Shown piece after piece: positions 1,956 to 48,025 of a stretch of DNA of 64,000 bases (positions are counted from its first letter, which is position 1; each line of letters starts with the position of its first letter). The position numbers and the translations under genes were made by a program. Below the pieces are notes generated by a model, which did no database searches, was not told the DNA's origin, and saw only the letters and a list, made by a program, of their open reading frames with translations. The stretch comes from a virus: UHGV virus genome UHGV-0371537. The stretch is one strand, 5' to 3'.

Positions 1956-2525
1956 TTATTTTACCACTTTTAACTTCACATCGCGCTCGAGCAGATACAC
2001 ATACTCATGGGCGGCTTCACGCGACATATAATGGGTAGATGGGGTGCTGTGTTTGTTCAGCGTCTCTTTTAATACAACGCGCTCAGCCCAACCATTAATA
2101 GATGTACCATAGAAGCCGATGATGGCTGCAAAATAAATGTTGCTAGTTTCAGGCTCCAGGATATAGTTCACCGTGAAGCACACCTCTGAGCGAACACCGG
2201 ATGGCCTGATGCCGATGCGTGAAGATGGCATGTCTTGTTCAACACATAAATGGCGGAAGCGGTCGCGACGAGCTTGTGATGACTCCATGAGTTCGCTGCG
2301 CAGATACGTGTCGTCAATATTGAAAGAGAAGGTGTTGGCACCTTTCAAATCAGATTTCGCCAAATCAATGGCCGAAGGAATAATTCGGCGGAAATTAATT
2401 TCTTTCTTGGTCAGGCGTAAAACTTCCGACGTGATCATTTTAAAATCGATGTCGTTTACTTTCTTCCCTTCATATTTTTCTAACAAAGGGATGATGTGTT
2501 TTAATACAGCAGTGTTGATATGCAT
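1956..2525 (-). CDS. hypothetical protein (189 aa)
   Basis: Only long ORF in the first 2.8 kb; divergent from the gp6-like gene; no motif recognised. Confidence 0.5.
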   Translation of the reverse strand: MHINTAVLKHIIPLLEKYEGKKVNDIDFKMITSEVLRLTKKEINFRRIIPSAIDLAKSDLKGANTFSFNIDDTYLRSELMESSQARRDRFRHLCVEQDMPSSRIGIRPSGVRSEVCFTVNYILEPETSNIYFAAIIGFYGTSINGWAERVVLKETLNKHSTPSTHYMSREAAHEYVYLLERDVKLKVVK

Positions 2526-2680
2526 GAGAGGTTCCTTAATATACGGTTGATTGACCGGACTATTATATTGGTGAAGGTGTTATTGAATTAAAGGCCAACA
2601 AAACAGGAGCGCGGTTTATTAATAGGCAGAAACTACTTTTCTACACCACTTACAAACTGTATCGTATCGCTGTGCCCTTT

Positions 2681-2773
2681 GAGTTGTGAGTGTTAACGAA
2701 CAACGAAAAGCAGCCTCCATGGCTGTGGAATGGGACTGCCTGTCAAGGCGGTGTTACGAGCGAAGCGAGTAGG
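2681..2773 (+). repeat. bipartite conserved intergenic element, copy A (upstream of gp6-like gene)
   Basis: GAGTTGTGAGTGTTAACGAACAACGA (2681-2706) and GAGCGAAGCGAGTAGG (2758-2773) recur at 46405-46459 with one mismatch each. Confidence 0.55.
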
Positions 2774-2824
2774 TTAACTCTATTCGAATAATATAACGCG
2801 CGAGGAAGATCCATTCCCGTCCGG

Positions 2825-2831
2825 CTAAATA
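2825..2831 (+). promoter_or_regulatory. late-promoter-like CTAAATA motif upstream of the gp6-like gene
   Basis: CTAAATA about 45 nt upstream of ATG 2872; same heptamer recurs before other structural genes. Confidence 0.4.
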
Positions 2832-6754: not shown

Positions 6755-9736
6755 ATGGCTAATAAACCAACACAGCCTGTTTTCCCTCTCGGTCTGGCGG
6801 CTGAAGAGCAGTCTACTTTGGCTGGTGTCCTCAACACGGGTACGATTGAGCATGGACCAGATGCTGTCCTGACTTTACCAGAGGGTAATGCCAGCGCAGG
6901 ACTCCCGTCTTCCGTTCGCTACAATGCCGACTCCGACGAATTTGAGGGCTTCTATGAAAATGGTGGATGGTTGCCGCTGGGTGGCGGTGGTATCCGCTGG
7001 GAAGTCCTTCCGCATGCCTCTACGGCAACGCTCACTGAAGGGCGAGGCTATCTCATTAATAATACCACAGGGGCATCTACAGTGGTTCTCCCTTCCCCTA
7101 CGCGTATTGGGGATTCCGTTACTATTTGTGATGCTTATGGGAAATTTGCCACTTACCCATTGACCGTGTCTCCTTCTGGAAATAATTTGTATGGCTCCAC
7201 TGAAGACATGGCTATAACAACTGATAACGTATCAGCAACGTTCACTTGGTCTGGACCTGAACAAGGTTGGATTATTACATCCGGCGTCGGTCTTGGCCAA
7301 GGTCGTGTCTACAGTCGTGAAATCTTTACAAAAATTTTGGCGTCTGAAACAAGTTCTGTCGCTCTCAATACTCCACCAACAATTGTGGACGTGTATGCTG
7401 ACGGAAAACGTCTTGCGGAATCCAAATATTCACTAGATGGGAATGTAATCACTTTCAGTCCTTCTTTGCCAGCCAACACAGAACTTCAGGTGATTGAATA
7501 TACTCCTATTCAATTGGGTAATGTCAGTGGTTCTGGTTCTTCTACGATTACCTGGGTCTATAATGGGGGTTCAGCGATTGGTGGTGAAACCGAAATCACG
7601 TTGGACGTCGTTGTTGATGATGTTCCGGCCATTGATATAAACGGAAGTCGCCAGTATAAAAATCTGGGATTCACATTCGATCCATTAACCAGTAAAATCA
7701 CTCTTGCGCAAGAACTGGAACCAGAGGATGAAGTTGTTGTAATTATCAATGGAACACCAAACATCTATAATCAAATTGATTATACTTTGCGGGAAGTTGC
7801 TCGAGCAACCAATGTTAAAGATACAGAGGTCGTTTATTTTAGTGTTGGTGCTGCGTTAAGTGGGTATAAAGTTATTTATGACAAGGAGACGCAAAGGGCT
7901 TATCCCTTGCCTGCTGATATTGTCCCTGGTACTACTGCTGTCAGTCTTAGTTCTTCCGCTATACTTGTGCATTCTGCTGGTAGTGTTGATCTGGGCGCAT
8001 TAGCTGTATCTCGTGAAGAATATGTTACATTGTCTGGGACATTTGATTCTGGTGCTGTCATCAATGTTAAAAATGAATTACTCACCCATACTGATGGAAA
8101 GTATCGTTGGGATGGTACACTTCCTAAAACCGTTGCTCCTGGCTCAACTCTTATGACAACAGGCGGCGTTGGTGTTGGCGCATGGATTAGTGTTGGTGAT
8201 GCTTCATTGAAGTCAGAATTGGCTAAACCTACAGGAGCAGGTTTTTCAGGTTTTGATAAGTCAATTGATTACGAAACTGGTACTGTTGGCAATGCGCTTA
8301 AGAAAATTATAAATGTCAACCCGGATATGTATCCATCATTACAGGATGCGATTGATGCTGCGGCAGCTTTAACAGGTTTAGAACATGCACCAAGTAGTGC
8401 TGCTAACCATCCTGACTGGCTACAACCTAACACTGTAAGCAAAGTTATCAGGCTGAATGGGAAGAAATATCCTATCAGTACGACACTACACATTCACGGA
8501 GATGTTAGCATTGATGCTGGTTTCGGTGGGGTGTACCTCACCGATGACTTCGTTGCAGACTCCTCTGGCTATGCTGTTAAATGCGATAAAGGGACGGGTA
8601 ATCAATACGCTGGGCATATCAGCAACTTATTAATTGATGCCCGTGCAAAAACTGTTAATGGGTTTAAGATATCCGATGGCTATGCTAACAAGTTAGAAGG
8701 CATTTACGTAGCCAACGTTGATGGTCATGGCATCCATATTGCTGGCGGTATGGGTGTGCACCTATTGAAGTTTTATGCTGTTGGTGTATTAAAACCAACT
8801 AATCCGCTCAGCACAGCCCACATTGTTGAAGGTAGCGATCATCAGGTTAGCATGGGTGAAGGTCGTTATTTCCGATTTGGTACCTGGGTTCGTGGTGGTG
8901 GTAATAACAGAATTGGTAAGGTGCACAACTGGGGCATGTATGACGATACAGTCACCGACCAGAACTCAAGGATGAAATGCTGCTTTGTTGTACAGAACTC
9001 AATAAACAATTCCTTCAATCAATGTTTTGCAGATTCTCCATCAAAATGGGACTACACGAAAGCTAATTTAGATCCTGTAGATGGTTATATTAACGGCGGG
9101 ATTGGTTTTTTTATTGATGGTGGAGCCACCGGTAATACGTTCTCTCAATGCCAGACGTTTGTGAATATGAATGCGTTTAATGACGCAGGGTTATCTGCAT
9201 ATGCGGCATCACTAATGCCATTCGCCGTTGGCAGTATCAATTGCTCATTCATTGAGTGTGAAAACTCAAACTCACCAGCATGGGTGGCAAGACTGATAAC
9301 TCATATTTACTCTGTGGATCAGGCATTTACTAACATACTCGCAGCTAAGAATTTTGTTGGTATAGAGTATGATATGGTTTGCAATGGTACAATTTTCAGG
9401 AAAAATGTTGGAGTTCCTGTATTGGTAAGAAATTCAAAGTTCGAGACGCCAACAGCAAGTTATGCGCCTAACTTTTCAGACGCATCTTACATCGCAGCTA
9501 CAGTTACAGGAGATGTAACAATAACACCAGCAGTATTAACAAATACACTAATTGGTTATGTTGAGGTTCTTTTGGCTGTCTATTCAACAACATCTAAAAC
9601 AATAACATTTGGTGCAAATGTTATATTAGCAAGTAGTACCCCATCTTTGACAGCAGCTGGAACACAAGTTTTTAGGTTGTCAACAACTGATGGAGGAACG
9701 ACTTGGTTCTGTAAGTTCGAGAGTGCTTACCCGTAA
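6755..9736 (+). CDS. tailspike protein, long form with N-terminal extension (TSP4-like)
   Basis: Internal anchor domain (aa ~350-510) paralogous to the N-termini of the 9839 and 15080 genes (VSREEYVTL, VKNELLTHT, KYRWDG); track start ATG 6725 lies in a hairpin loop, ATG 6755 follows the CTAAATA motif and hairpin. Confidence 0.8.
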   Translation: MANKPTQPVFPLGLAAEEQSTLAGVLNTGTIEHGPDAVLTLPEGNASAGLPSSVRYNADSDEFEGFYENGGWLPLGGGGIRWEVLPHASTATLTEGRGYLINNTTGASTVVLPSPTRIGDSVTICDAYGKFATYPLTVSPSGNNLYGSTEDMAITTDNVSATFTWSGPEQGWIITSGVGLGQGRVYSREIFTKILASETSSVALNTPPTIVDVYADGKRLAESKYSLDGNVITFSPSLPANTELQVIEYTPIQLGNVSGSGSSTITWVYNGGSAIGGETEITLDVVVDDVPAIDINGSRQYKNLGFTFDPLTSKITLAQELEPEDEVVVIINGTPNIYNQIDYTLREVARATNVKDTEVVYFSVGAALSGYKVIYDKETQRAYPLPADIVPGTTAVSLSSSAILVHSAGSVDLGALAVSREEYVTLSGTFDSGAVINVKNELLTHTDGKYRWDGTLPKTVAPGSTLMTTGGVGVGAWISVGDASLKSELAKPTGAGFSGFDKSIDYETGTVGNALKKIINVNPDMYPSLQDAIDAAAALTGLEHAPSSAANHPDWLQPNTVSKVIRLNGKKYPISTTLHIHGDVSIDAGFGGVYLTDDFVADSSGYAVKCDKGTGNQYAGHISNLLIDARAKTVNGFKISDGYANKLEGIYVANVDGHGIHIAGGMGVHLLKFYAVGVLKPTNPLSTAHIVEGSDHQVSMGEGRYFRFGTWVRGGGNNRIGKVHNWGMYDDTVTDQNSRMKCCFVVQNSINNSFNQCFADSPSKWDYTKANLDPVDGYINGGIGFFIDGGATGNTFSQCQTFVNMNAFNDAGLSAYAASLMPFAVGSINCSFIECENSNSPAWVARLITHIYSVDQAFTNILAAKNFVGIEYDMVCNGTIFRKNVGVPVLVRNSKFETPTASYAPNFSDASYIAATVTGDVTITPAVLTNTLIGYVEVLLAVYSTTSKTITFGANVILASSTPSLTAAGTQVFRLSTTDGGTTWFCKFESAYP

Positions 9737-9740
9737 AACT

Positions 9741-9766
9741 AACCCCCTCTTCGGCAGGGTTCTTGT
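9741..9766 (+). terminator. degenerate copy of the AACCCCGCTTCGGCGGGGTT terminator
   Basis: AACCCCCTCTTCGGCAGGGTT immediately after the tailspike stop at 9736. Confidence 0.35.
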
Positions 9767-9798
9767 TATACCTTTGTTCATAAATTTATTAGTTCAGC

Positions 9799-9834
9799 CT
9801 AAATACCCCATATTGGTCATCCTTTATGGGGTAT
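9799..9834 (+). promoter_or_regulatory. late-promoter-like CTAAATA plus 9-bp hairpin covering the SD region
   Basis: ATACCCCAT (9803-9811) pairs with ATGGGGTAT (9826-9834); ATG 9839. Confidence 0.5.
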
Positions 9835-9838
9835 TATC

Positions 9839-11788
9839 ATGATTTCTCAATTCAATCAACCACGCGGCTCCACTTCCATAGAAGTTAACAAACAATCTAT
9901 CGCTCGAAATTTCGGTGTCAAAGAAGACGAAGTCGTTTATTTCACTGCTGGTATTGATCTCAGTGGATTTAAAGTAATTTATAATGAGTCTACCCAACGG
10001 GCTTATTCTCTTCCTTCAGGTATTGTTTCAGGAACGACTGCTGTTAGTCTTAGTGCTAACGCTGTTCTTATGCACTCAGCTGGTTCTATAGACCTCGGAG
10101 AATTAGCCGTATCTCGTGAAGAATACGTTACATTGCCTGGGTCATTCACCTCGGGTGCTACGCTTAATGTTAAAAATGAATTGCTTACCCATACAACAGG
10201 CAAGTATCGCTGGGACGGGGAATTTCCTAAAACCGTTTCTGCAGGTTCTACCCCTGAATCTGCTGGTGGTGTTGGTCCTAGTGCGTGGGTTAGTGTTGGT
10301 GTTGCTTCTTTAAGAGCAGACCTGGAAAAACCAACAGGGGCAGGATTGATTGGATTTGGCTGTTCTCCATATATAAATAGAAATATTGGAGATGTTCTCC
10401 AGGATATACCAACGAACAAATATTTTGGTGCAAAGTGTGATGGCGTAACTGATGATACTGTAGCTAACCAAACTGCACTTGATTGGTCTGCTGACAATAA
10501 AAGAGATGTTATTTTTGTTGGAAAAAGCTGCATAACAAGCAGACTTGTACACAATTCAGGCTCCAGGGTAACACATCTTGGAGAGATCAAACCTCGTGAT
10601 TTTTCTGATGATGTTGTTATTGAGGTAAAGGACGATGCGTGGCGTGATCCTTACAATGATGGAATAACAGCAATCGATACTGGCGATAGAGTTCATATTG
10701 ATGGTCTATGTATTGCCCCTGACTCTGTAATAGATGCTGTTGGTATTCTTGGCACTGATGGAGTGGATCCGATCATATCAAGATTAAGAACATTCAACAT
10801 GAGAAGGGGAGGAATTAAGATTGTTAAGGGGTATGGATGGAACATATCAAACATTTCAATCATTGCACCTTTTGATCAAAATAACTCTCATGATTATGCA
10901 GGAATTAGGCATGAAACGTCAGATTCATTTTATTCTAGCGTTATAGTTTCAGGATATACTACTGGACTTGATATGCCTGGAAATGCTAATCAAGTATCAA
11001 AGGCCCACTGCTGGGGAATGTCATTACCAGATAGAACCACTCGTAATATGTTATTCGGCCTTAAAATGAGCGGTAGTGGTAATAACGTAGTGCAATTCTA
11101 TTCTGATTCTCCTAAAAAAATTGATAAAACACAAGCTGCAAGCATTACAAATGGTGGGATTGGCTATGTAATTTCTGGTTTTAACAACACATTTTTATCA
11201 CCTAGGAACCTATCTCATCAGGATTGTGGCTTGAAATATGGTAAGGTTTTTCTGATATCTGGTTCTGAGAATACCTTTATTAGCCCCTTAATAGGTGATT
11301 ATGACTACATTGAAGATGATGGATTTTTCACATTTACAGATTCGGCAAGCCCGCTAAACAACTATGTTTATGGTGGCAACATGCAATCTACATATTTGTA
11401 CCCAATTGCAAGTGGTAGCTATAAACCAACTGTAAACATCCCATGCACATACAGCTCTCAAATATATAACCATAATATCATTCAGAAAAATGTTATGGGA
11501 AGAGTTGTTATTACATGCAATATTACAAGTAATTCATCCGACGATCCATTCTATATACAACTGCCACCTTATCTATCAGCTGTATCTGGGATGGCAAGTG
11601 GATCAATAATTAACAACCTTACATCGTCAGTAAGAGCTGATAGCAACCTTTTTGCAGTCGAACCTTATGTTTCAAATGGTAAAATCTACTTCCGTAGATT
11701 ATTTAGATCTGGAGCTGCTGATGATATAAAGCAAAATATGCTTAACACAGGTAATGCTTTCTTTGATATATCAATAAATGCAAGATAA
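9839..11788 (+). CDS. tailspike protein, short form (TSP3-like)
   Basis: N-terminal anchor domain shared with the other three tailspike genes; 649 aa. Confidence 0.8.
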   Translation: MISQFNQPRGSTSIEVNKQSIARNFGVKEDEVVYFTAGIDLSGFKVIYNESTQRAYSLPSGIVSGTTAVSLSANAVLMHSAGSIDLGELAVSREEYVTLPGSFTSGATLNVKNELLTHTTGKYRWDGEFPKTVSAGSTPESAGGVGPSAWVSVGVASLRADLEKPTGAGLIGFGCSPYINRNIGDVLQDIPTNKYFGAKCDGVTDDTVANQTALDWSADNKRDVIFVGKSCITSRLVHNSGSRVTHLGEIKPRDFSDDVVIEVKDDAWRDPYNDGITAIDTGDRVHIDGLCIAPDSVIDAVGILGTDGVDPIISRLRTFNMRRGGIKIVKGYGWNISNISIIAPFDQNNSHDYAGIRHETSDSFYSSVIVSGYTTGLDMPGNANQVSKAHCWGMSLPDRTTRNMLFGLKMSGSGNNVVQFYSDSPKKIDKTQAASITNGGIGYVISGFNNTFLSPRNLSHQDCGLKYGKVFLISGSENTFISPLIGDYDYIEDDGFFTFTDSASPLNNYVYGGNMQSTYLYPIASGSYKPTVNIPCTYSSQIYNHNIIQKNVMGRVVITCNITSNSSDDPFYIQLPPYLSAVSGMASGSIINNLTSSVRADSNLFAVEPYVSNGKIYFRRLFRSGAADDIKQNMLNTGNAFFDISINAR

Positions 11789-12010: not shown

Positions 12011-12278
12011 TCATCAGAATGGTATTGAATCACTGTTGGTAATAGTAGGCTCATTGCCTCTTGGTTGGTTTGGATGCTGTTCAGTATAACCGGTTCCAAC
12101 CAAACCAATGAGGCAGTGGGTAAGGGGGGTTTTTGTTGTACCCCAAACAATTCATTAGGTAGACTGTTTTAGTCAATTACGACTTAACTAACCTGAGAAA
12201 ATCCCTATGGGAAATGAACCAGATAACGTAACTCTAGCCAGACTCGAAGAGAGACTGAGAAACATTTTCGAAAACCAA

Positions 12279-12305
12279 AACCCCGCTTCGGCGGGGTTCT
12301 TATTA
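12279..12305 (+). terminator. rho-independent terminator, second exact copy
   Basis: Identical 20-mer AACCCCGCTTCGGCGGGGTT followed by CTTATTAT. Confidence 0.7.
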
Positions 12306-12336
12306 TATCCATGTTCATAAATTTTATTAGTTCAGG

Positions 12337-12373
12337 CTAAATACCCCATATTGGCAAATCCTCTATGGGGTAT
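12337..12373 (+). promoter_or_regulatory. late-promoter-like CTAAATA plus 9-bp hairpin covering the SD region
   Basis: ATACCCCAT (12341-12349) pairs with ATGGGGTAT (12365-12373); ATG 12380. Confidence 0.5.
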
Positions 12374-34874: not shown

Positions 34875-35747
34875 ATGAAACCTGAATTGCAAAAACTGTT
34901 TGAGGGCGTTAACGGCCTCAGCACCGACTTCCTGGATAAAGTGTCTGGCCTGCTGGAATCTAAAGTAGAAGCTGCTCGCCTGACTGCTATCCAAGAAACC
35001 GAAAACGCTGCCAACATTGAGCGTCTGCGTCTTGTTGAAGCTCACCAGTCTGAAATTGCTCAGCTGAAAGAGTCTCACATCCAAGAGCTGGCCATCAAAG
35101 TCGACGGCTTCCTGAACGCCGTTGTAGAAGAGTGGGCTAACAAGAACGCTCCTGCTATCGACGCTCAGATCAAACGTGAAGCGGCTGAAAATCTGCTGAC
35201 TGGTCTGACTGGCGTTCTGAAAGAAGCTGGTATCAACTTCGCTACCGACGAAAACGGCCAGATCGCTGCGCTGACTGCTCGCCTGACCGAAGCTGAACGC
35301 CGTGCGGCTGAAGCTGAAGCAGAAAACCGTCAGATCAAAGAAGCGGCCAATGCGACTCTGCGCGACTCTGTTGTTGCCCGTATCTGTGAAGGTATGGTAG
35401 ACACCAAGAAAGCCACCGTCGTCGGCCTGCTGGAAGCGGTTCAGTTCACCACCGAAAGCGAATTCGCTTCTCGTGTTCAGACCTTCCGTAATCTGGTAGA
35501 AGGTAAGTCTGCCAAGAAAGAAGGTGACGACAACGACGATGACGACTTCAAAGACAAAGTCGGCGGCAAAGACGGCGACGATGACAACAAAGAGTCGAAA
35601 GACAAAGTCGACGAGAGCAAGAAATCCAAGAAAGAAGGCGACGACGACAACGACGACGATGAAGATGATGAAGCTGGTAAAGAGCTGAAAGAATCTATCC
35701 GTCGTCAGCGCGAATTGTATCGTGCGAAGTACAACGTCAACGGCTAA
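34875..35747 (+). CDS. gp22: prohead scaffold protein, T4 gp22-like
   Basis: Alpha-helical, Ala/Glu-rich with an acidic DDDDEDDE tail; CTAAATA at 34841. Confidence 0.75.
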   Translation: MKPELQKLFEGVNGLSTDFLDKVSGLLESKVEAARLTAIQETENAANIERLRLVEAHQSEIAQLKESHIQELAIKVDGFLNAVVEEWANKNAPAIDAQIKREAAENLLTGLTGVLKEAGINFATDENGQIAALTARLTEAERRAAEAEAENRQIKEAANATLRDSVVARICEGMVDTKKATVVGLLEAVQFTTESEFASRVQTFRNLVEGKSAKKEGDDNDDDDFKDKVGGKDGDDDNKESKDKVDESKKSKKEGDDDNDDDEDDEAGKELKESIRRQRELYRAKYNVNG

Positions 35748-43626: not shown

Positions 43627-44372
43627 TGGCATCTCTCCAGGCTCTCAGAAAGCTGAACGACTTCGAAAATCGTCACTACACATTCCAGCAGTATGAACTC
43701 CCATACAAAGAACTGGAGTGTGTGACGACGGAGAATGGTCGACATTATGTGTCTCCGACTGGCGTCAAACTCACGTCTGTCACAACGATGCTGGGTCGAA
43801 CCGGAGACCATGAATGGCTCGAAGCCTGGAGGGAGAAGTTGGGCGCAGAGGCCGCCGATCTTGAGACCATGCGTTGTGCGGAACGTGGGGAGAAGCTGCA
43901 TCTTGCGTGTGAATTGTATTTGAAGAACCGCCCAATGAAAGAAGTGCTCGAGGCGGCTGGTGAATACATGTTCATGTTCAAGCAACTCTTCCCATACCTG
44001 AACAAGATGACCAAGATCTATGCTCAGGAGATTCCATTATATAGCGAAGTCCTTGGCCTCGCTGGGCGCGTAGACCTCATCGGGGTGTATGAGGGCAAAC
44101 CAGCCATAATCGACTTCAAGACCTCCAATGTAATGAAGACTCGGGGTATGATTGAGGACTACAGCATCCAGCTGTGTCTATACTCAGTCATGTTCCAACA
44201 GATGTTCGGCGTGAAGATCACCCGGTTGATAAACGTCATCGCCAACGAATCCTCTTTGAACCCAACTATCATCGAGTTCCATCGTGATGACATCCTGAGC
44301 AAGATGTTTGAGCGTGTCCGCCTGTACCATCGCATGGATAAAGAACAGAACGGAGTCTGGGCGAACCACTAA
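43623..44372 (+). CDS. PD-(D/E)xK nuclease-like protein (249 aa)
   Basis: GRVDLIGVYEGKPAIIDFKTS fits a D...(D/E).K core; sits between UvsY-like and UvsW-like genes. Confidence 0.45.
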   Translation: MMASLQALRKLNDFENRHYTFQQYELPYKELECVTTENGRHYVSPTGVKLTSVTTMLGRTGDHEWLEAWREKLGAEAADLETMRCAERGEKLHLACELYLKNRPMKEVLEAAGEYMFMFKQLFPYLNKMTKIYAQEIPLYSEVLGLAGRVDLIGVYEGKPAIIDFKTSNVMKTRGMIEDYSIQLCLYSVMFQQMFGVKITRLINVIANESSLNPTIIEFHRDDILSKMFERVRLYHRMDKEQNGVWANH

Positions 44373-44400: not shown

Positions 44401-45909
44401 ATGGCAGACGTTCAGATTGTTAAGGTTAACGAAGTCCGCATGCGTTGCATCGCAGATCTTTCTATCAGGGAAGAGCTGAACGATTACTTCAAATTCGAAG
44501 ACCCCAATTACACACCAAATCCATTCTCGAAATGGGATGGAATCGTTCGCCTTTTCACCAAGTCGTCCGGCCTCATCGATATCGGTCTCCTGTTCGAGGT
44601 TTTTAAATTCTGTAAGCATCACGGATACACAGTTGAATTGGACCCGGCGCTGAAGTACATACAGGACATCCCTGATGAAGAGATCTATGAATTCATCAAC
44701 AGCCTACACGCCAAAGTACGTACAGAAAATCATGAGTACATCGATGCGATCACCCGTGATTACCAGTTCGACACGATAGCCAAGGCGATGCGTCAAACCA
44801 GATGCGTCTGCGAACTGGCTACGAGTGCCGGGAAGTCCTTTGTTCTGTATGTCATGGCGCGGTACTACAGGCAACGCAGAGAAGCCCTAGAAAGCAATCT
44901 GAGGACGCTTATCGTGGTGCCGTCAATCCACCTGGTTACACAGCTGTACGACAACTTCGAAGAATACTCCCACGGCACTGACTGGAAGCCAGTTGTCCAC
45001 ACTCAGCTGATCTTTGAGGGGGCAACCAAGAACATCACCAAGCCGATTGTCATCAGTACCTGGCAGGGCATACAAGACCAACCGAAGGAGTGGTTCCACC
45101 AGTTTGGCGACATCGTTGTGGATGAAGTACATACATCCAAGTCCGAGAAGCTGTCCTACATCCTCAACAATTGTATCTACGCCGACCAGCGTCTGGGCGT
45201 GACGGGTACGCTGGCAAACACCAAAGTCGCTGGGCTTCAGGTGGTGGCTCACTTCGGCACTTATCACAAGATCATCACGGCTCGCGACCTTATCAATCTT
45301 GGGTACGCCACTGACATCAAGGTCAAGATGATCGAGCTGAAGCACACCATCGCTGACGCAATGACTCTTGACGGGGAGTACAGCAAGGAAATTGAATATC
45401 TTATCACCCATCAGTCGCGAAACGAAGTGATTGCGAAGATGGCGCTGAACCTCAAGGGGAATGTTGCTGTTATGTTCGAGCGTATTGACGCCCACATGAT
45501 GGTAGTGTATGAGATGCTGAGCGCAGTAAAGCCAAACGTGTTTGTCATCAACGGTGAAGTGAAGATCGAAGATCGTCGACGCATTCAGAAAGCGATGGAA
45601 GATGGCGAGGATATCACGTTGCTGGCTTCTTACGGGACAATGCAGCAGGGTGTTTCAATCAAGAAGTTGCATCACCTGGTACTGGCCCACCCGAGCAAGT
45701 CATATATCCGTGTCATACAGACATTGGGTCGTCTGATGCGTCAGCACTCCTCTAAGGATGTGGCATGGATCTGGGACTTAGTCGACAATGCGTCGTATAA
45801 AGGATCCCAGAACCACGCTGTGAGGCATTCGCAAGAGCGATACAAGTTCTATCTGTCTGAGCGCCACCCAGTAGAATTCATGAAAGTGGCGCTCGGTAAT
45901 CACGATTGA
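44401..45909 (+). CDS. uvsW: DNA/RNA helicase, T4 UvsW-like
   Basis: Walker A LATSAGKS, DEVH box, TWQGIQDQPKEWFHQFG and KKLHHLVLAH resemble T4 UvsW; 502 aa from ATG 44401 (track start 44308). Confidence 0.85.
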   Translation: MADVQIVKVNEVRMRCIADLSIREELNDYFKFEDPNYTPNPFSKWDGIVRLFTKSSGLIDIGLLFEVFKFCKHHGYTVELDPALKYIQDIPDEEIYEFINSLHAKVRTENHEYIDAITRDYQFDTIAKAMRQTRCVCELATSAGKSFVLYVMARYYRQRREALESNLRTLIVVPSIHLVTQLYDNFEEYSHGTDWKPVVHTQLIFEGATKNITKPIVISTWQGIQDQPKEWFHQFGDIVVDEVHTSKSEKLSYILNNCIYADQRLGVTGTLANTKVAGLQVVAHFGTYHKIITARDLINLGYATDIKVKMIELKHTIADAMTLDGEYSKEIEYLITHQSRNEVIAKMALNLKGNVAVMFERIDAHMMVVYEMLSAVKPNVFVINGEVKIEDRRRIQKAMEDGEDITLLASYGTMQQGVSIKKLHHLVLAHPSKSYIRVIQTLGRLMRQHSSKDVAWIWDLVDNASYKGSQNHAVRHSQERYKFYLSERHPVEFMKVALGNHD

Positions 45910-46277
45910 TCTTGGTTCACATAGGCGGGGGTTGCCTCGCCTTCTTCACCCGCTGCGCCGAACAATTTGTCCAAAGAAGCCAGGCACTGAGAATTCAGAT
46001 GTTCACTAATCGTGTCTTTCAACGTTCGTTCGCTGTCTAATTTGAACGGCAACACCTTCGCTTCAATGCCGTTTTCAAAGGTGACAACGCCGATGTACAG
46101 ACCAACTTTCATGCCTGTCATCAAGCCAAGAGGCACAAAGCGCGGCTCCGATGGTAAGTTCTTGTCTGACGCCAGCTGTGCCAGATAAACTGGAGTTCCG
46201 GTAACAAACTCTCCTGCGGTGAGGATGGCATCTGGCTTGCTGCATCCCACTGCGTACAATCCTACAAACTGTTTCAT
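45900..46277 (-). CDS. hypothetical protein (125 aa)
   Basis: Minus-strand ORF divergent from the sliding clamp gene. Confidence 0.45.
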   Translation of the reverse strand: MKQFVGLYAVGCSKPDAILTAGEFVTGTPVYLAQLASDKNLPSEPRFVPLGLMTGMKVGLYIGVVTFENGIEAKVLPFKLDSERTLKDTISEHLNSQCLASLDKLFGAAGEEGEATPAYVNQDQS

Positions 46278-46404
46278 ATATTACTCTCGTGTGTTGGTTA
46301 ACCTGACATACATATTATTTCGCGCCCATGTTTAGACCAAATTAAATTATTTTGCTGTTGAATAAAAACTGCTTTCTTGTTGAACAACTGGCGTGGTATT
46401 ATAC

Positions 46405-46459
46405 GAGTTGTGAGTGTTAACGAGCAACGAGTATTTGTTTTATGAGCGAAGCGAATAGG
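46405..46459 (+). repeat. bipartite conserved intergenic element, copy B (upstream of sliding clamp gene)
   Basis: GAGTTGTGAGTGTTAACGAGCAACGA (46405-46430) and GAGCGAAGCGAATAGG (46444-46459); spacer 13 nt here versus 51 nt in copy A. Confidence 0.55.
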
Positions 46460-46620
46460 ATTAATAAAGGTTGTTATCTTTAATAAATTCCATAAATGCC
46501 GAAGGCATTTATTAATAACGCGTAGCGGCAAATCACCACTTGTTCTATAAGCACAACACAGCGATACTAGATTGCGTCAAACATGACTTGAACCCCACTA
46601 TATTTTGAGGATACATACAA

Positions 46621-47289: not shown

Positions 47290-47368
47290 TCAATCTCCAG
47301 CCTGATGCTATAATGTGTGGGCGGGGGTTTCCCGCCCATTTGAAATGATTCTTCTACAAGAGGCTGAA

Positions 47369-48025
47369 ATGAGGAATCAACCGTTTGTATATCATTTGTT
47401 AGGAAAGGATGGTTCTTTCTATTTTGGTTCTAGAACGAAATTGGGTGCGCATCCTTTACAATTGTTCACTTCGTATTTCACTTCTTCACAAACGGTCAAG
47501 GAAATCATATCTAAGAAAGGTTCTGATTTCTTTGATGTGATATTTGTAGAATTGTTCGACTCTCCAGAAGATGCATATTGGAGAGAGCAGCAGTTGATTA
47601 GTGAGAACATTGATCACCCAAAATGTTTAAACAAATCATTTCAACCACTGGGTTGTGGTATCGCCAACGGTAGGTCAGCGGGACCCAAACATCACCGAGT
47701 TGGTGTCTCGAGTTGGTTGAAGGGTAAGTCTGGGAATCTTCATCCCATGCACGGAAGAACTGGTAAAAGCCACCCCGCCGCAGGAATAAAACCCTGGGAC
47801 ACCGGGGCTGCGCTGCTACACAACACCAGACCGATGTGGTTAAAGGCTGGGGTAGTGTATGATCACTGGGTTTCTACTGGTGATGGGTGCCATAGAATTG
47901 CCCGTTTGTTCTCTATCAAAGAGAACACCGCAACGAGTATGTTAAACAAATTCAAAGAGGGCTGGAACCCGTATGATGACGACGCTTGGGTTCTGTTCTG
48001 TAAACTATATCATGGAAATACATAA
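47369..48025 (+). CDS. GIY-YIG homing endonuclease (Seg-like)
   Basis: FVYHLLGKDGSFYFGSRT is a GIY-YIG core; NUMOD-like HPMHGRTGKSHP; ATG 47369 with GAGG SD; inserted between clamp and clamp-loader genes. Confidence 0.7.
   Translation: MRNQPFVYHLLGKDGSFYFGSRTKLGAHPLQLFTSYFTSSQTVKEIISKKGSDFFDVIFVELFDSPEDAYWREQQLISENIDHPKCLNKSFQPLGCGIANGRSAGPKHHRVGVSSWLKGKSGNLHPMHGRTGKSHPAAGIKPWDTGAALLHNTRPMWLKAGVVYDHWVSTGDGCHRIARLFSIKENTATSMLNKFKEGWNPYDDDAWVLFCKLYHGNT

Follow-up and report, generated by a model that had tools for sequence, protein, structure and literature searches.

Enterobacterial phages of the Ackermannviridae carry, at three loci of the genome, a cassette of about 200 bp that is a previously undescribed and strongly conserved non-coding element, most likely a structured RNA. 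We consider it probable that the cassette is a strand-specific structured nucleic-acid element, selected as such. It was recognized in a stretch of 64,000 nucleotides (64 kb, hereafter the window) from an Agtrevirus-like phage of the Ackermannviridae, which possesses the full T4-type replisome (helicase loader, RNase H, UvsW, gp45/44/62 and gp55/gp33). Copy A lies upstream of the gp6 wedge operon and copy B upstream of the gp45 clamp operon; a third paralogous copy (C) is found outside the window, upstream of the gp5-like hub/lysozyme gene. All three copies are oriented in the same sense as the downstream gene (3/3).

The first-pass annotation had described two boxes that recur in the same order and orientation at two intergenic sites of the window. 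This bipartite repeat is real beyond chance, with the coordinates and identities that were given for it. Box 1, GAGTTGTGAGTGTTAACGA[A/G]CAACGA (2681-2706 and 46405-46430), is identical at 25 of 26 positions, and a search of both strands of the 64 kb with up to three mismatches returns these two matches only, where shuffled sequences give an expectation of 0.00. Box 2, GAGCGAAGCGA[G/A]TAGG (2758-2773 and 46444-46459), is identical at 15 of 16 positions; alone it has three matches at up to three mismatches, a count reached in 2 of 100 shuffles, and is not significant, and its significance comes jointly with box 1 in the same order and orientation. The spacers are indeed 51 nt in copy A (2707-2757) and 13 nt in copy B (46431-46443), and at both sites the boxes fall between a minus-strand and a plus-strand gene. 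The inverted repeat reported for the longer spacer exists as well, and is in fact two hairpins (2710-2726 and 2735-2752), so that the 51 nt are an inserted hairpin pair, SL2 and SL3. The description needed to be widened in two respects. The shared region does not end with the boxes, as it extends to an upstream box, a -10-like hexamer, helix extensions, an AT-rich tract and a CGCG box (Table 1); and to the two loci of the window is added the paralogue upstream of the gp5-like gene.

Table 1 Features of cassette copies A and B in the window (hairpins as predicted for the plus-strand RNA)
Feature	Position	Strand	Description
Copy A, flanking ORF	1956-2525	-	
Copy A, upstream box	2630-2643	+	AAACTACTTTTCTA; conserved across genera; cassette-specific
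Copy A, -10-like hexamer	2660-2665	+	TATCGT; TATCTT, TATGCT or TACAGT in relatives; TAnnnT form and position kept across genera
Copy A, SL1	2677-2710	+	Box 1 plus outer helix CUUU/AAAG
Copy A, SL2	2710-2726	+	GCAGCC[UCCAU]GGCUGU; first half of the spacer; single-sequence folding and RNAalifold
Copy A, possible pseudoknot partner of the SL2 loop (2716-2720)	2730-2734	+	AUGGG; covariation
Copy A, SL3	2735-2752	+	ACUGCCU[GUCA]AGGCGGU; conserved U·G pair; second half of the spacer; single-sequence folding and RNAalifold
Copy A, SL4	2754-2772	+	UUAC-GA-GC[GAA]GC-GA-GUAG; capped hairpin containing box 2
Copy A, AT-rich tract, then CGCG box	2774-2796, then 2797-2805	+	CGCG box CGCGCGAGG
Late-promoter-like heptamer for gp6	2825-2831	+	CTAAATA; downstream of the element, outside the cassette
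Copy A, gp6-like gene	from ATG 2872	+	
Copy B, flanking ORF	45900-46277	-	
Copy B, upstream box	46366-46379	+	AAACTGCTTTCTTG; kept in B copies of Agtrevirus, Limestonevirus, Taipeivirus and Kuttervirus
Copy B, -10-like hexamer	46397-46402	+	TATTAT, preceded by TGG; TATTAT, TACTAT or TAATAT in four genera
Copy B, SL1	46401-46434	+	Box 1 plus outer helix AUAC/GUAU; U·G for U-A at one pair
Copy B, SL4	46440-46458	+	UUAU-GA-GC[GAA]GC-GA-AUAG; box 2
Copy B, AT-rich tract	46460-46528	+	Contains hairpin 46492-46512 (AUAAAUGCC-GAA-GGCAUUUAU), then ACGCGTAGCGG (46518-46528)
Copy B, gp45 sliding clamp gene	from 46621	+	

Folding models turn each box into a hairpin on the plus strand only, SL1 from box 1 and SL4 from box 2. 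In copy A, SL1 is predicted by single-sequence folding and by RNAalifold as an outer helix, a tandem G•A, the inner helix GUUGU/ACAAC, a second tandem G•A, the pairs GU/AC and a GUUA loop. SL1 and SL4 have a common cap, Y-GA-G[C/U], a 3-5-nt loop and [G/A]C-GA-R, in which two sheared-type G•A/A•G mismatches (Y-GA-R context) lie below a 2-bp mini-hairpin with its loop of 3-5 nt. The cap pairs of SL1 in copy B are GU/AC or GC/GC, and the outer helix of copy B SL1 in Serratia phage KNP4 reads AUUC/GAAU, a compensatory change. SL4 is closed by a C-G pair in copy A and by U-A in the other two copies; within the copy B alignment this pair is U-A in four sequences and C-G in four. Loops vary more freely: that of SL4 occurs as GAA, GUA, AUA, AAC or UUCA, and Kuttervirus has an 18-nt hairpin insertion at its position. 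The inserted pair shows similar behavior. SL2 in copy C is AUGCC[UCCAU]GGCAU, which amounts to two compensatory pairs, and SL3 exchanges U-A for C-G, C-G for U-A and A-U for G·U while its loop varies in sequence and in length. One SL2 loop position also covaries with the AUGGG just downstream (alignment columns 12-24: A-U in 16, C-G in 7, paired in 23/23), and the two segments may form a pseudoknot, tentatively proposed as its 3-nt linker is short for one. Beyond SL4 the order of capped hairpin, AT-rich tract (20-60 nt) and CGCG box does not change among genera in copies A and B, and copy C of KNP4 has it as well. The hairpin inside the tract of copy B is kept in Agtrevirus, Limestonevirus and Kuttervirus (Det7 keeps the stem with another loop) and is absent from Taipeivirus and Miltonvirus; with this loss, and with a terminator-like form on the minus strand only, we rejected it as a conserved intrinsic terminator.

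Support for the folds comes from ten or more compensatory changes and from conserved G·U pairs. For SL2-SL4, 95.4% of cells are paired over 23 distinct sequences and six pairs are changed on both sides, compared with 31-51% in slid controls; for SL1, 100% of cells are paired and four pairs are changed on both sides. RNAalifold independently recovers the same stems. Folding z-scores against shuffles are -2.3, -2.5 and -4.0 for the plus strand, and +0.5 and -1.6, no better than shuffles, for the minus strand. The U·G pair of SL3 is present in 20 of the 23 sequences, and as conserved G·U pairs become A•C on the other strand, the symmetry is strand-specific. Three further candidates were rejected. 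The 17-codon micro-ORF MAVEWDCLSRRCYERSE (ATG 2719-2721 in copy A) has CTG (CCCTGG) in Taipeivirus-type copies, 1-nt loop indels that shift its frame and a variable stop. The palindrome GUUAAC of the SL1 loop, a possible kissing site, is lost in Klebsiella phages (GUCAAC) and in MK-13 (GAUAAC). In both paralogues of the Klebsiella phages CCATGG has changed in parallel to CCCTGG; avoidance of a restriction site was discarded as an explanation, as CCATGG is not under-represented in these phages, with 21 sites observed and 15 expected.

The motif is present in all enterobacterial relatives, in 276 phage records that are all of the Ackermannviridae type; in most of these records copy A is 96-100% identical over 89 nt. 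The three-copy arrangement is seen in Agtrevirus, Limestonevirus, Kuttervirus, Taipeivirus and Miltonvirus. Between the window and Kuttervirus, SL1-SL3 are 97% identical, against 62-73% for the flanking non-coding DNA and both neighboring genes, with the genes alone at about 65-73%, and the element is the most conserved non-coding sequence seen in this analysis. More distant phages preserve the architecture with other letters: Serratia phage KNP4 and Vibrio phage K493 keep the cap and have the stems wholly replaced (the inner helix of SL1 in KNP4 is GUAGUUC/GAACUGC), and the distant Vibrio relative has one capped hairpin.

Within a genome the element is not scattered, and its specificity lies in the paired arrangement alone. 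Twin capped hairpins within 110 nt occur at element loci only, two in the window and three in KNP4 (MK-13 and KNP4 have three element loci each), with 0-0.03 in dinucleotide shuffles. Single caps are no guide to it; a loose regular expression for GA-capped hairpins gives 128 matches, barely above the approximately 90 in shuffles, and a stricter one is not enriched (5 versus 3.0), so a motif common throughout the genome was dismissed. No capped hairpin was present in 70 kb of T4 that include the g45 and g5-g6 regions. Rfam 15 returned no match over the whole window at gathering thresholds, none at 2600-2880 with sensitive filters and E<=10, and none at look-alike hairpins of bacteria. Literature searches on Ackermannviridae and Kuttervirus transcription, the family review and the LIMEstone1 genome paper yielded no description of the element, and the literal motif strings matched unrelated primers only.

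A regular expression for the upstream box followed 16-17 nt later by TAnnnT, applied to the complete MK-13 and KNP4 genomes, finds element loci only, which are copies A and B of MK-13 and copies A and C of KNP4; copy C of MK-13 has a variant upstream box that was seen by eye. We infer that the TAnnnT hexamer is a promoter. As the module occurs at cassettes alone, it does not define a general promoter class; a consensus scan detected no standard sigma-70 site at the elements, and a MotA-type middle promoter was rejected with no MotA box in the element regions. The -10 of T4-type late promoters, TATAAATA-like, is not part of the boxes, and T4 TATAAATA is absent from the element regions. The late-promoter-like signal of this phage is the heptamer CTAAATA, which stands 14-47 nt upstream of many plus-strand structural ORFs in the window; the site orthologous to that before gp6 is annotated as a putative late promoter in LIMEstone1, whose record also has putative promoters beside copy B. 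Such heptamers are found downstream of copies A and C and none in the copy B region. With a late promoter downstream of it, the element cannot be a late-mRNA leader at copies A and C. The first-pass framing as divergent-promoter regions is only partly right: the late promoters at copies A and C come after the element, and copy C lies between co-oriented genes with no strand switch. Copy C is preceded in the same sense by a terminator and by a perfect extended -10 (TGTTATAAT), the latter about 100 nt upstream. Copy B presents a conflict. Its hexamer abuts SL1, so that an RNA initiated at it would be missing the 5' half of a helix that nevertheless covaries. This leaves an RNA start farther upstream or a role of the structure in DNA. 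The minus strand at this hexamer reads a perfect TATAAT, in overlap with SL1 at its 5' edge. None of the copies has an intrinsic terminator after SL4, and we found no transcriptome or transcript map of Ackermannviridae in the literature.

The best overall explanation, to which we would give somewhat less than an even chance, is that the cassette gives rise to a structured early RNA, either non-coding or a leader, that acts as a docking platform for protein. Before late transcription sets in, host RNA polymerase would transcribe the cassette in the same sense as the downstream genes, starting from the cassette's own -10-like hexamer and AAAAC..TTTTC box or, in copy C, alternatively from the extended -10 upstream. 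The RNA would fold co-transcriptionally, and the two capped hairpins would offer a bipartite platform to a phage or host protein, probably a dimer or a two-domain protein. Once docked, this protein would decide the fate of the early transcript as it enters the AU-rich tract, by elongation, termination, processing or stability. The specific model, in which the platform controls the early transcript, is a tentative one that we judge somewhat less likely than not. The terminator and the same-sense extended -10 at copy C count for sense transcription. Against it counts that we infer the start sites, the ends and even transcription itself, that the hexamer of copy B abuts SL1, and that the adjacent ORFs supply no candidate binding protein: the two divergent ORFs adjoining the element, which match nothing in Pfam and fall into PHROG families of unknown function, were rejected as candidates. 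An early transcript would, moreover, head into late baseplate genes without evident reason. The cap, with its GCGNAGC mini-hairpin and Y-GA-R tandem mismatches, is no less typical of highly stable hairpins in single-stranded DNA, which counts against an RNA, as does the same hairpin architecture in REP-like bacterial repeats.

Known regulatory RNAs offer partial parallels for such a platform. The HK022 put and lambda nut sites are cis-acting antitermination RNAs in the leaders of early operons; put consists of two stem-loops in about 70 nt downstream of PL and PR and makes RNA polymerase resistant to termination. Compared by layout and not by sequence, put is similar to the cassette, and with both systems the cassette shares two to three copies per genome, in sense, downstream of early-type promoters (putative ones in the cassette) and before different operons, as well as a two-part hairpin element with stems kept by compensatory change. 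Unlike lambda nut, neither intergenic region contains a boxA (CGCUCUUA or GCUCUUUA) on either strand, the loops are not of the boxB type and no conserved terminator lies downstream. With no conserved terminator after the element, an antitermination role has no obvious target. We know of no N-like protein in this phage family, and T4-like phages are not, to our knowledge, known for put/nut-type RNAs. The translational operator of T4 gene 32 is a 5' pseudoknot followed by an unstructured A/U-rich tract, at a single locus, and reaches the ribosome-binding site. The cassette, in a T4-like phage, likewise has a structured 5' module (with a possible pseudoknot in copies A and C) and then an AU-rich tract; it differs in having three loci, none of them at gene 32, and a tract that ends 40-100 nt before the start codon, with a late promoter between in copies A and C.

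A DNA-replication role is the foremost alternative, although an unlikely one. The cassette would be an origin of the T4 oriF/oriG type or an R-loop cassette, in which the non-coding RNA of a non-late promoter stays hybridized in the AT-rich tract after the hairpins. The R-loop would prime leading-strand synthesis and/or give a primer-template junction for gp45 loading beside the baseplate late promoters, and the hairpins, as RNA or as displaced plus-strand DNA, would set its upstream edge or recruit replication proteins. We give an equally low probability to the stronger form, that the phage has in the three cassettes its dedicated sites of replication initiation and/or clamp loading. A promoter specific to the cassette would produce a structured RNA, and the capped hairpins of this RNA would seed a persistent R-loop in the AT-rich tract; the R-loop would prime early DNA synthesis and, at gp6 and gp5, would also be a fixed loading point for gp45 beside the baseplate late promoters. 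The T4-type replisome is in accord with an origin, as is the constant order of promoter-like module, hairpins, AT-rich tract (reaching about 130 nt in K493) and GC clamp. The cassettes also resemble oriF/oriG, which combine a promoter with an A+T-rich unwinding element, in their multiple loci and in a non-late promoter-like module, exclusive to the cassettes, that is followed by an AT-rich tract; at copies A and C this module is directed toward late genes and has no coding target ahead of the late promoter. By AT content the tract of copy B (about 60 nt) ranks in the top 0.03% of 30-bp windows in the 64 kb, but that of copy A is about 23 bp and ranks in the top 4.5% only. Several T4 origins lie at strand-switch regions (PMC3016281); copy C does not, and opposite copy B there is just one small ORF. 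The annotated T4 oriE lies within gene 5, whose orthologue is the neighbor of copy C, but the oriE primer RNA is antisense to gene 5 and the element is sense. The extreme conservation of the hairpins is not predicted by an origin, since T4 origins have no common sequence motif and R-loop formation at them needs no specific sequence (PMC3016281). Unlike those origins, which share neither sequence nor structured RNA, the cassettes have as their most conserved part a 60-100-nt hairpin module, and its capped hairpins are absent from the 70 kb of T4.

Structure in DNA could also be at work outside replication origins. An improbable reading is that the cassettes are domesticated REP/BIME-like palindromes, with plus-strand hairpins that form in single-stranded or supercoiled DNA and would be the target of an enzyme that acts on DNA, for example a topoisomerase/gyrase, a nuclease or a helicase loader. 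REP/BIME repeats are likewise imperfect hairpins with conserved mismatches and GCGNAGC-type tips, built as mosaic units (here combinations of SL1, SL2-3 and SL4), and GCGNAGC mini-hairpins and Y-GA-R tandem G•A pairs are known for their unusual stability as DNA. Exact matches to the SL1 core (GAGTTGTGAG-N4-8-CGANCAACGA) turn up in metagenomic contigs that are unrelated and in six genome records (four of them alpha-/gammaproteobacterial MAGs), and in about half of the matches the GC...GC cap pairs, left free in the search pattern, are present too. These matches sit in interspersed palindromic repeats of environmental bacteria, some with a 5' GTAG and some with an SL4-like short hairpin (CGAGCGAAGCGAG) on the other arm; the core itself was, however, forced by the search pattern and may reflect convergence if the architecture is common. 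The overlap of the copy B structure with promoter-like signals on both strands is a further point for DNA. REP repeats are dispersed in tens to hundreds of copies and sit at 3' ends of genes, whereas the element has three fixed orthologous loci per genome, upstream of genes. No GTAG precedes the hairpins (the GUAG here is the 3' strand of the SL4 stem) and the MK-13 annotation contains no RAYT-type transposase. Many cap loops depart from GNA (UUU, AAA, AUA, AAC and UUCA occur), and both the conserved G·U (G·T) stem pairs and the covariation of a loop with downstream sequence, which suggests a pseudoknot, point to RNA. That RNA could instead act in trans, as three paralogous early small RNAs with host or phage targets, or by sequestering a host protein, possibly as an anti-defense decoy. 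This we regard as quite improbable. The cassettes are self-contained, with their own promoter-like module upstream of late transcription units, and are very highly conserved across phages of different hosts, but they have no intrinsic terminator after SL4 and no obvious conserved single-stranded seed. Mimicry of the type I-F CRISPR repeat by SL3 was rejected, as the likeness, judged by eye against what we take to be the repeat, is limited to the GC-rich CUGCC stem; the stem position presumably contacted by protein differs and repeat flanks are missing. The two interpretations offered in the first-pass annotation fared differently. A shared leader or small-RNA element fits the plus-strand-only hairpins, the two-sided stem changes, the conserved G·U pairs and the free loops. 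A simple binding site for a regulator in duplex DNA is unsupported, because a classical double-stranded operator would not give a pattern that preserves pairing and lets the loops vary. We hold it very improbable that the cassette is a double-stranded operator or promoter element bound by a phage transcription regulator. Its intergenic position, the promoter-like signals, the putative promoters of LIMEstone1 and the minus-strand TATAAT of copy B speak for one; the compensatory changes that hold intra-strand pairing while loops drift, the G·U pairs that make the symmetry strand-specific, and the exchange of whole stems in KNP4 and K493 with retention of the non-Watson-Crick GA cap speak against it.

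Gene regulation and replication initiation are essentially unstudied in the Ackermannviridae, the ViI-like phages in wide use against Salmonella, E. coli O157, Klebsiella and Dickeya. The element provides a testable fold at three fixed loci, before the clamp operon and two baseplate operons. The capped hairpin, with its tandem G•A and mini-hairpin, is shared with REP-like repeats of bacteria and may be a general structural module. Under either reading, docking platform or R-loop, the element is a candidate for a new family of RNAs in Rfam. Should it prove to be an R-loop origin or a site of clamp loading, the questions of origin definition and of clamp loading for late transcription raised by T4 would become directly testable through a defined motif, and T4-like phages would have their first origin or enhancer motif defined by sequence and structure. 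Should it prove to be an RNA docking platform, it would imply an RNA-binding regulator, not yet known, of the early-to-late switch.

The two boxes that the first-pass annotation had reported as duplicated are indeed each present twice with a single difference between copies. The spacer separating them measures 51 nt in copy A, which precedes the gp6-like gene, and 13 nt in copy B, which precedes the gp45 gene; as described, both copies have a minus-strand ORF on one side and a plus-strand gene on the other. Box 1 has no third match in the window at up to 3 mismatches, and none was found in 100 shuffles. Folding, RNAalifold and a look at related sequences agree on one set of hairpins, confined to the plus strand: box 1 becomes SL1, box 2 becomes SL4, and the hairpins SL2, GCAGCC[UCCAU]GGCUGU, and SL3, ACUGCCU[GUCA]AGGCGGU, fill the copy A spacer. 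From base to tip, SL1 of copy A has CUUU/AAAG as its outer helix and GUUGU/ACAAC as its inner one, with a tandem G•A/A•G above each; GU/AC and a GUUA loop complete it. SL4 is UUAC, a tandem GA, GC[GAA]GC, a tandem GA and GUAG. Their tips share a cap, Y-GA-G[C/U], a 3-5-nt loop and [G/A]C-GA-R.

Positions of the element and of other features (window coordinates unless a record is named)
Feature	Position	Strand	Remark
Box 1, copy A	2681-2706		26 nt
Box 1, copy B	46405-46430		26 nt
Box 2, copy A	2758-2773		16 nt
Box 2, copy B	46444-46459		16 nt
gp6-like wedge subunit gene	ATG at 2872	+	downstream of copy A
gp45 sliding clamp gene	from 46621	+	downstream of copy B
Copy C in phage MK-13	153590-153651	minus	sense of gp5
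GGTATTATAC	46396-46404	both	extended -10 TGGTATTAT on +; perfect TATAAT on -; directly abuts SL1 of copy B
CTAAATA sites	2825, 6711, 9799, 12337, 17447, 24703, 28978, 34841, 41187, 44369	+	putative late -10
Parallel change in SL2 region	2719, 2731		alignment columns 12, 24; loci L016, L023-L025, L029, L037, L039, L041
Homing-endonuclease-like ORF	47315-48025	+	236 aa
Duplicated ~85-nt module	9732-9816; 12269-12354		82-94% identity
300-nt repeat	7813-8112; 9916-10215		74% identity
GAC/GAT-rich imperfect repeats	35521-35679		12-66-nt spacing; within ORF 34875-35747
Phage K493, AT-rich stretch and hairpin	L155 1190-1360
Phage K493, direct repeat	L155 1440-1760
Bacterial SL1-core repeats	L104, L108, L110, L111, L113, L114, L116-L120, L123, L127, L128, L132, L133, L137, L140

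The gp5-like hub/lysozyme gene of MK-13 is preceded by a third copy (C), present as well in pSal-SNUABM-02, LIMEstone1, Kuttervirus and Taipeivirus. Copy A holds SL1-SL4, copy B holds SL1 and SL4, and copy C in most genera holds SL2-SL4 without SL1. In Serratia phage KNP4, a Miltonvirus whose gp6 is 63% identical, each of the three copies consists solely of two capped hairpins about 20 nt apart, so the twin-hairpin form (the bipartite motif of the first reading) is probably ancestral and SL2-3 an insertion. The homology reaches past the hairpins. Upstream is a box, AAAAC(C/T)A(C/T)TTTTC, followed 16-17 nt later by a TAnnnT hexamer, a module for which a pattern search of two complete genomes matched the cassette loci alone; 3' of SL4 runs an AT-rich tract of 20-60 nt, closed off by a CGCG-rich box or, in the majority of C copies, by a GC hairpin. 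A pair of capped hairpins within 110 nt on a single strand is likewise confined to the cassette loci, and shuffling the window never produced one.

By megablast the window belongs to the Ackermannviridae, with Salmonella phage pSal-SNUABM-02 (Agtrevirus) as closest record. A 106-nt copy A query matched 276 phage records, all of Ackermannviridae type, at 96-100% identity over 89 nt in most and about 85% in Klebsiella Taipeivirus. SL1-SL3 are 97% identical to those of a Kuttervirus whose flanking non-coding DNA and both neighbour genes are 62-73% identical, which argues that the element is much more constrained than its surroundings.

Selection on the folds is seen in the alignments. The 23 distinct SL2-SL4 sequences show pairing in 95.4% of cells, with both-sided changes at six pairs, compared with 31-51% paired when partners were slid by 1-3 columns; for SL1 (8 distinct sequences), the figures are 100% and four pairs. 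Independent compensatory events include UUU/AAA to UUC/GAA in SL1 of copy A (copy B has UAC/GUA), AUAC/GUAU to AUUC/GAAU in the copy B outer helix of KNP4, GU/AC to GC/GC in the cap (at least two independent events), CA/UG to AU/AU between SL2 of copies A and C, and, in SL3, exchanges between U-A and C-G in either direction. The lone mismatch in box 2 is itself one of them, a C-G to U-A change of the SL4 closing pair whose compensating C-to-T lies just outside the box. The loops are free to vary (GUUA, GUCA, GAUA and UUU in SL1; GAA, GUA, AUA, AAC and UUCA in SL4), and Kuttervirus carries an 18-nt hairpin in place of the SL4 loop. KNP4 has remodeled the SL1 inner helix to GUAGUUC/GAACUGC while keeping both GA motifs and the cap. 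Vibrio phage K493 (gp6 43% identical) has GGGGU-GA-GC[GAA]GC-GA-ACCCC upstream of gp6, 15 nt after a TATAAT. As G·U pairs are conserved (a U·G in 20 of 23 SL3 sequences, for instance) and the minus strand folds poorly, the structure is strand-specific.

The SL2 loop CCAU is complementary to AUGG 3 nt after the stem. Taipeivirus-type phages have CCCU and AGGG instead, so that the pairing can form in all 23 sequences. A pseudoknot is possible, its 3-nt linker being short for one; a G-to-C change in GGUGUUAC, an alternative partner, covaries too in the A lineage, but several C copies cannot form this second pairing. In the Taipeivirus-type lineage the double change is present in both the A and the C paralogue. 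With paralogue-specific bases between the two sites, a single gene-conversion tract does not account for the pattern, nor does avoidance of CCATGG sites; co-evolution with a shared partner may. A 17-codon ORF starting in the SL2 loop was discarded as a coding gene, not being conserved.

Many plus-strand structural ORFs of the window have CTAAATA 14-47 nt ahead of them; the heptamer probably serves this phage as late-promoter -10 and would be a variant of T4 TATAAATA. The LIMEstone1 record marks the orthologous position before gp6 as a putative late promoter. The putative late site at 2825-2831 and its copy C equivalent, CATAAATA, are both downstream of the hairpins, so neither the gp6 nor the gp5 late mRNA includes the element. 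Ahead of copy C, in the same sense, stand a terminator and an extended -10 with a perfect match, TGTTATAAT; this is the best indication that host polymerase transcribes the cassette in the sense direction. At copy B, GGTATTATAC may be an overlapping divergent promoter pair. The conserved hexamer there (TATTAT, TACTAT or TAATAT) adjoins SL1, so a transcript initiated from it would omit the SL1 5' strand, yet the helix covaries; LIMEstone1 annotates another plus-strand -10 about 90 nt upstream.

Several neighboring features were recorded. The CTAAATA at 44369 precedes a uvsW-like gene. Between gp45 and gp44, which adjoin in MK-13 with no gene between, a 236-aa ORF matches homing-endonuclease PHROG families (best E 5e-16); the clamp/clamp-loader operon has probably gained it as a mobile insertion. 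The duplicated ~85-nt intergenic module comprises a terminator hairpin (CUUCGG loop) together with TTCATAAATTT and CTAAATACCCCATATTGG, and stands ahead of two large genes of tail-spike type. The window also holds a 300-nt repeat. The GAC/GAT-rich run encodes an acidic, low-complexity stretch, its ORF possibly specifying a scaffold-type protein. In K493 the lone capped hairpin is followed by about 130 nt of extremely AT-rich DNA that ends in a perfect GGGUUAC-GAA-GUAACCC hairpin and, further downstream, by two copies of a ~130-nt direct repeat, cctctccttgcctcagagctgttt....

The element has no match in Rfam, contains no boxA, MotA box or TATAAATA, and is not described in the genome papers or review examined. 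In its mode of working it would come closest to put/nut leader RNAs or to an origin made of a promoter plus an unwinding element; the membership criteria tested do not place it in either class. The first-pass annotation had proposed either a regulator binding site or a leader or small-RNA element. As a duplex operator the site is very improbable, since covariation contradicts it. We favor RNA on four grounds: the covariation pattern, the G·U pairs, an orientation that is sense at each of the three loci, and the pseudoknot that may form. Small RNAs acting in trans are a doubtful form of this, as no terminator follows the hairpins.

An R-loop origin or clamp-loading site is unlikely, though it is the strongest of the rival readings: the order of the cassette fits T4 oriF and oriG, which consist of a promoter and an A+T-rich unwinding element (PMC3016281), the phage encodes a full T4-type replisome, and few places in the window are as AT-rich as the tract 3' of copy B. 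Against it, T4 origins have no common motif, the 70 kb of T4 that were examined contain no hairpins of this kind, the copy A tract is short and copy C is away from any strand switch. Distinctly less probable, and only slightly ahead of trans-acting RNAs, are DNA-level REP-like hairpins. An SL1 core search of genome and metagenome collections returned many non-phage matches, about half of which carry the cap pairs, though the pattern did not demand them. They lie in palindromic repeats of the interspersed kind; a 5' GTAG is present in some of these, and in some the other arm bears a hairpin like SL4. The phage, however, has no RAYT-type gene and carries the element at just three fixed loci, and both may have converged on the same compact, stable hairpin.

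REP/BIME-like repeats of environmental bacteria contain the SL1 core exactly, as GAGTTGTGAGC-loop-GCGARCAACGA; among the loci listed, the two genome-collection MAGs (L104, L108) are Alphaproteobacteria. The opposite arm often has a short CGAGCGAAGCGAG-type hairpin, and no Rfam family covers any of these repeats.

For the RNA that we favor, only structure and conservation are observed; transcription, a partner protein and an effect are inferred. Our tentative proposal, held at somewhat below even chances, is a docking platform acting on an early transcript: the twin caps would form a bipartite site for a protein, and the docked protein would act on the early, non-late transcript on entry into the AU-rich tract.
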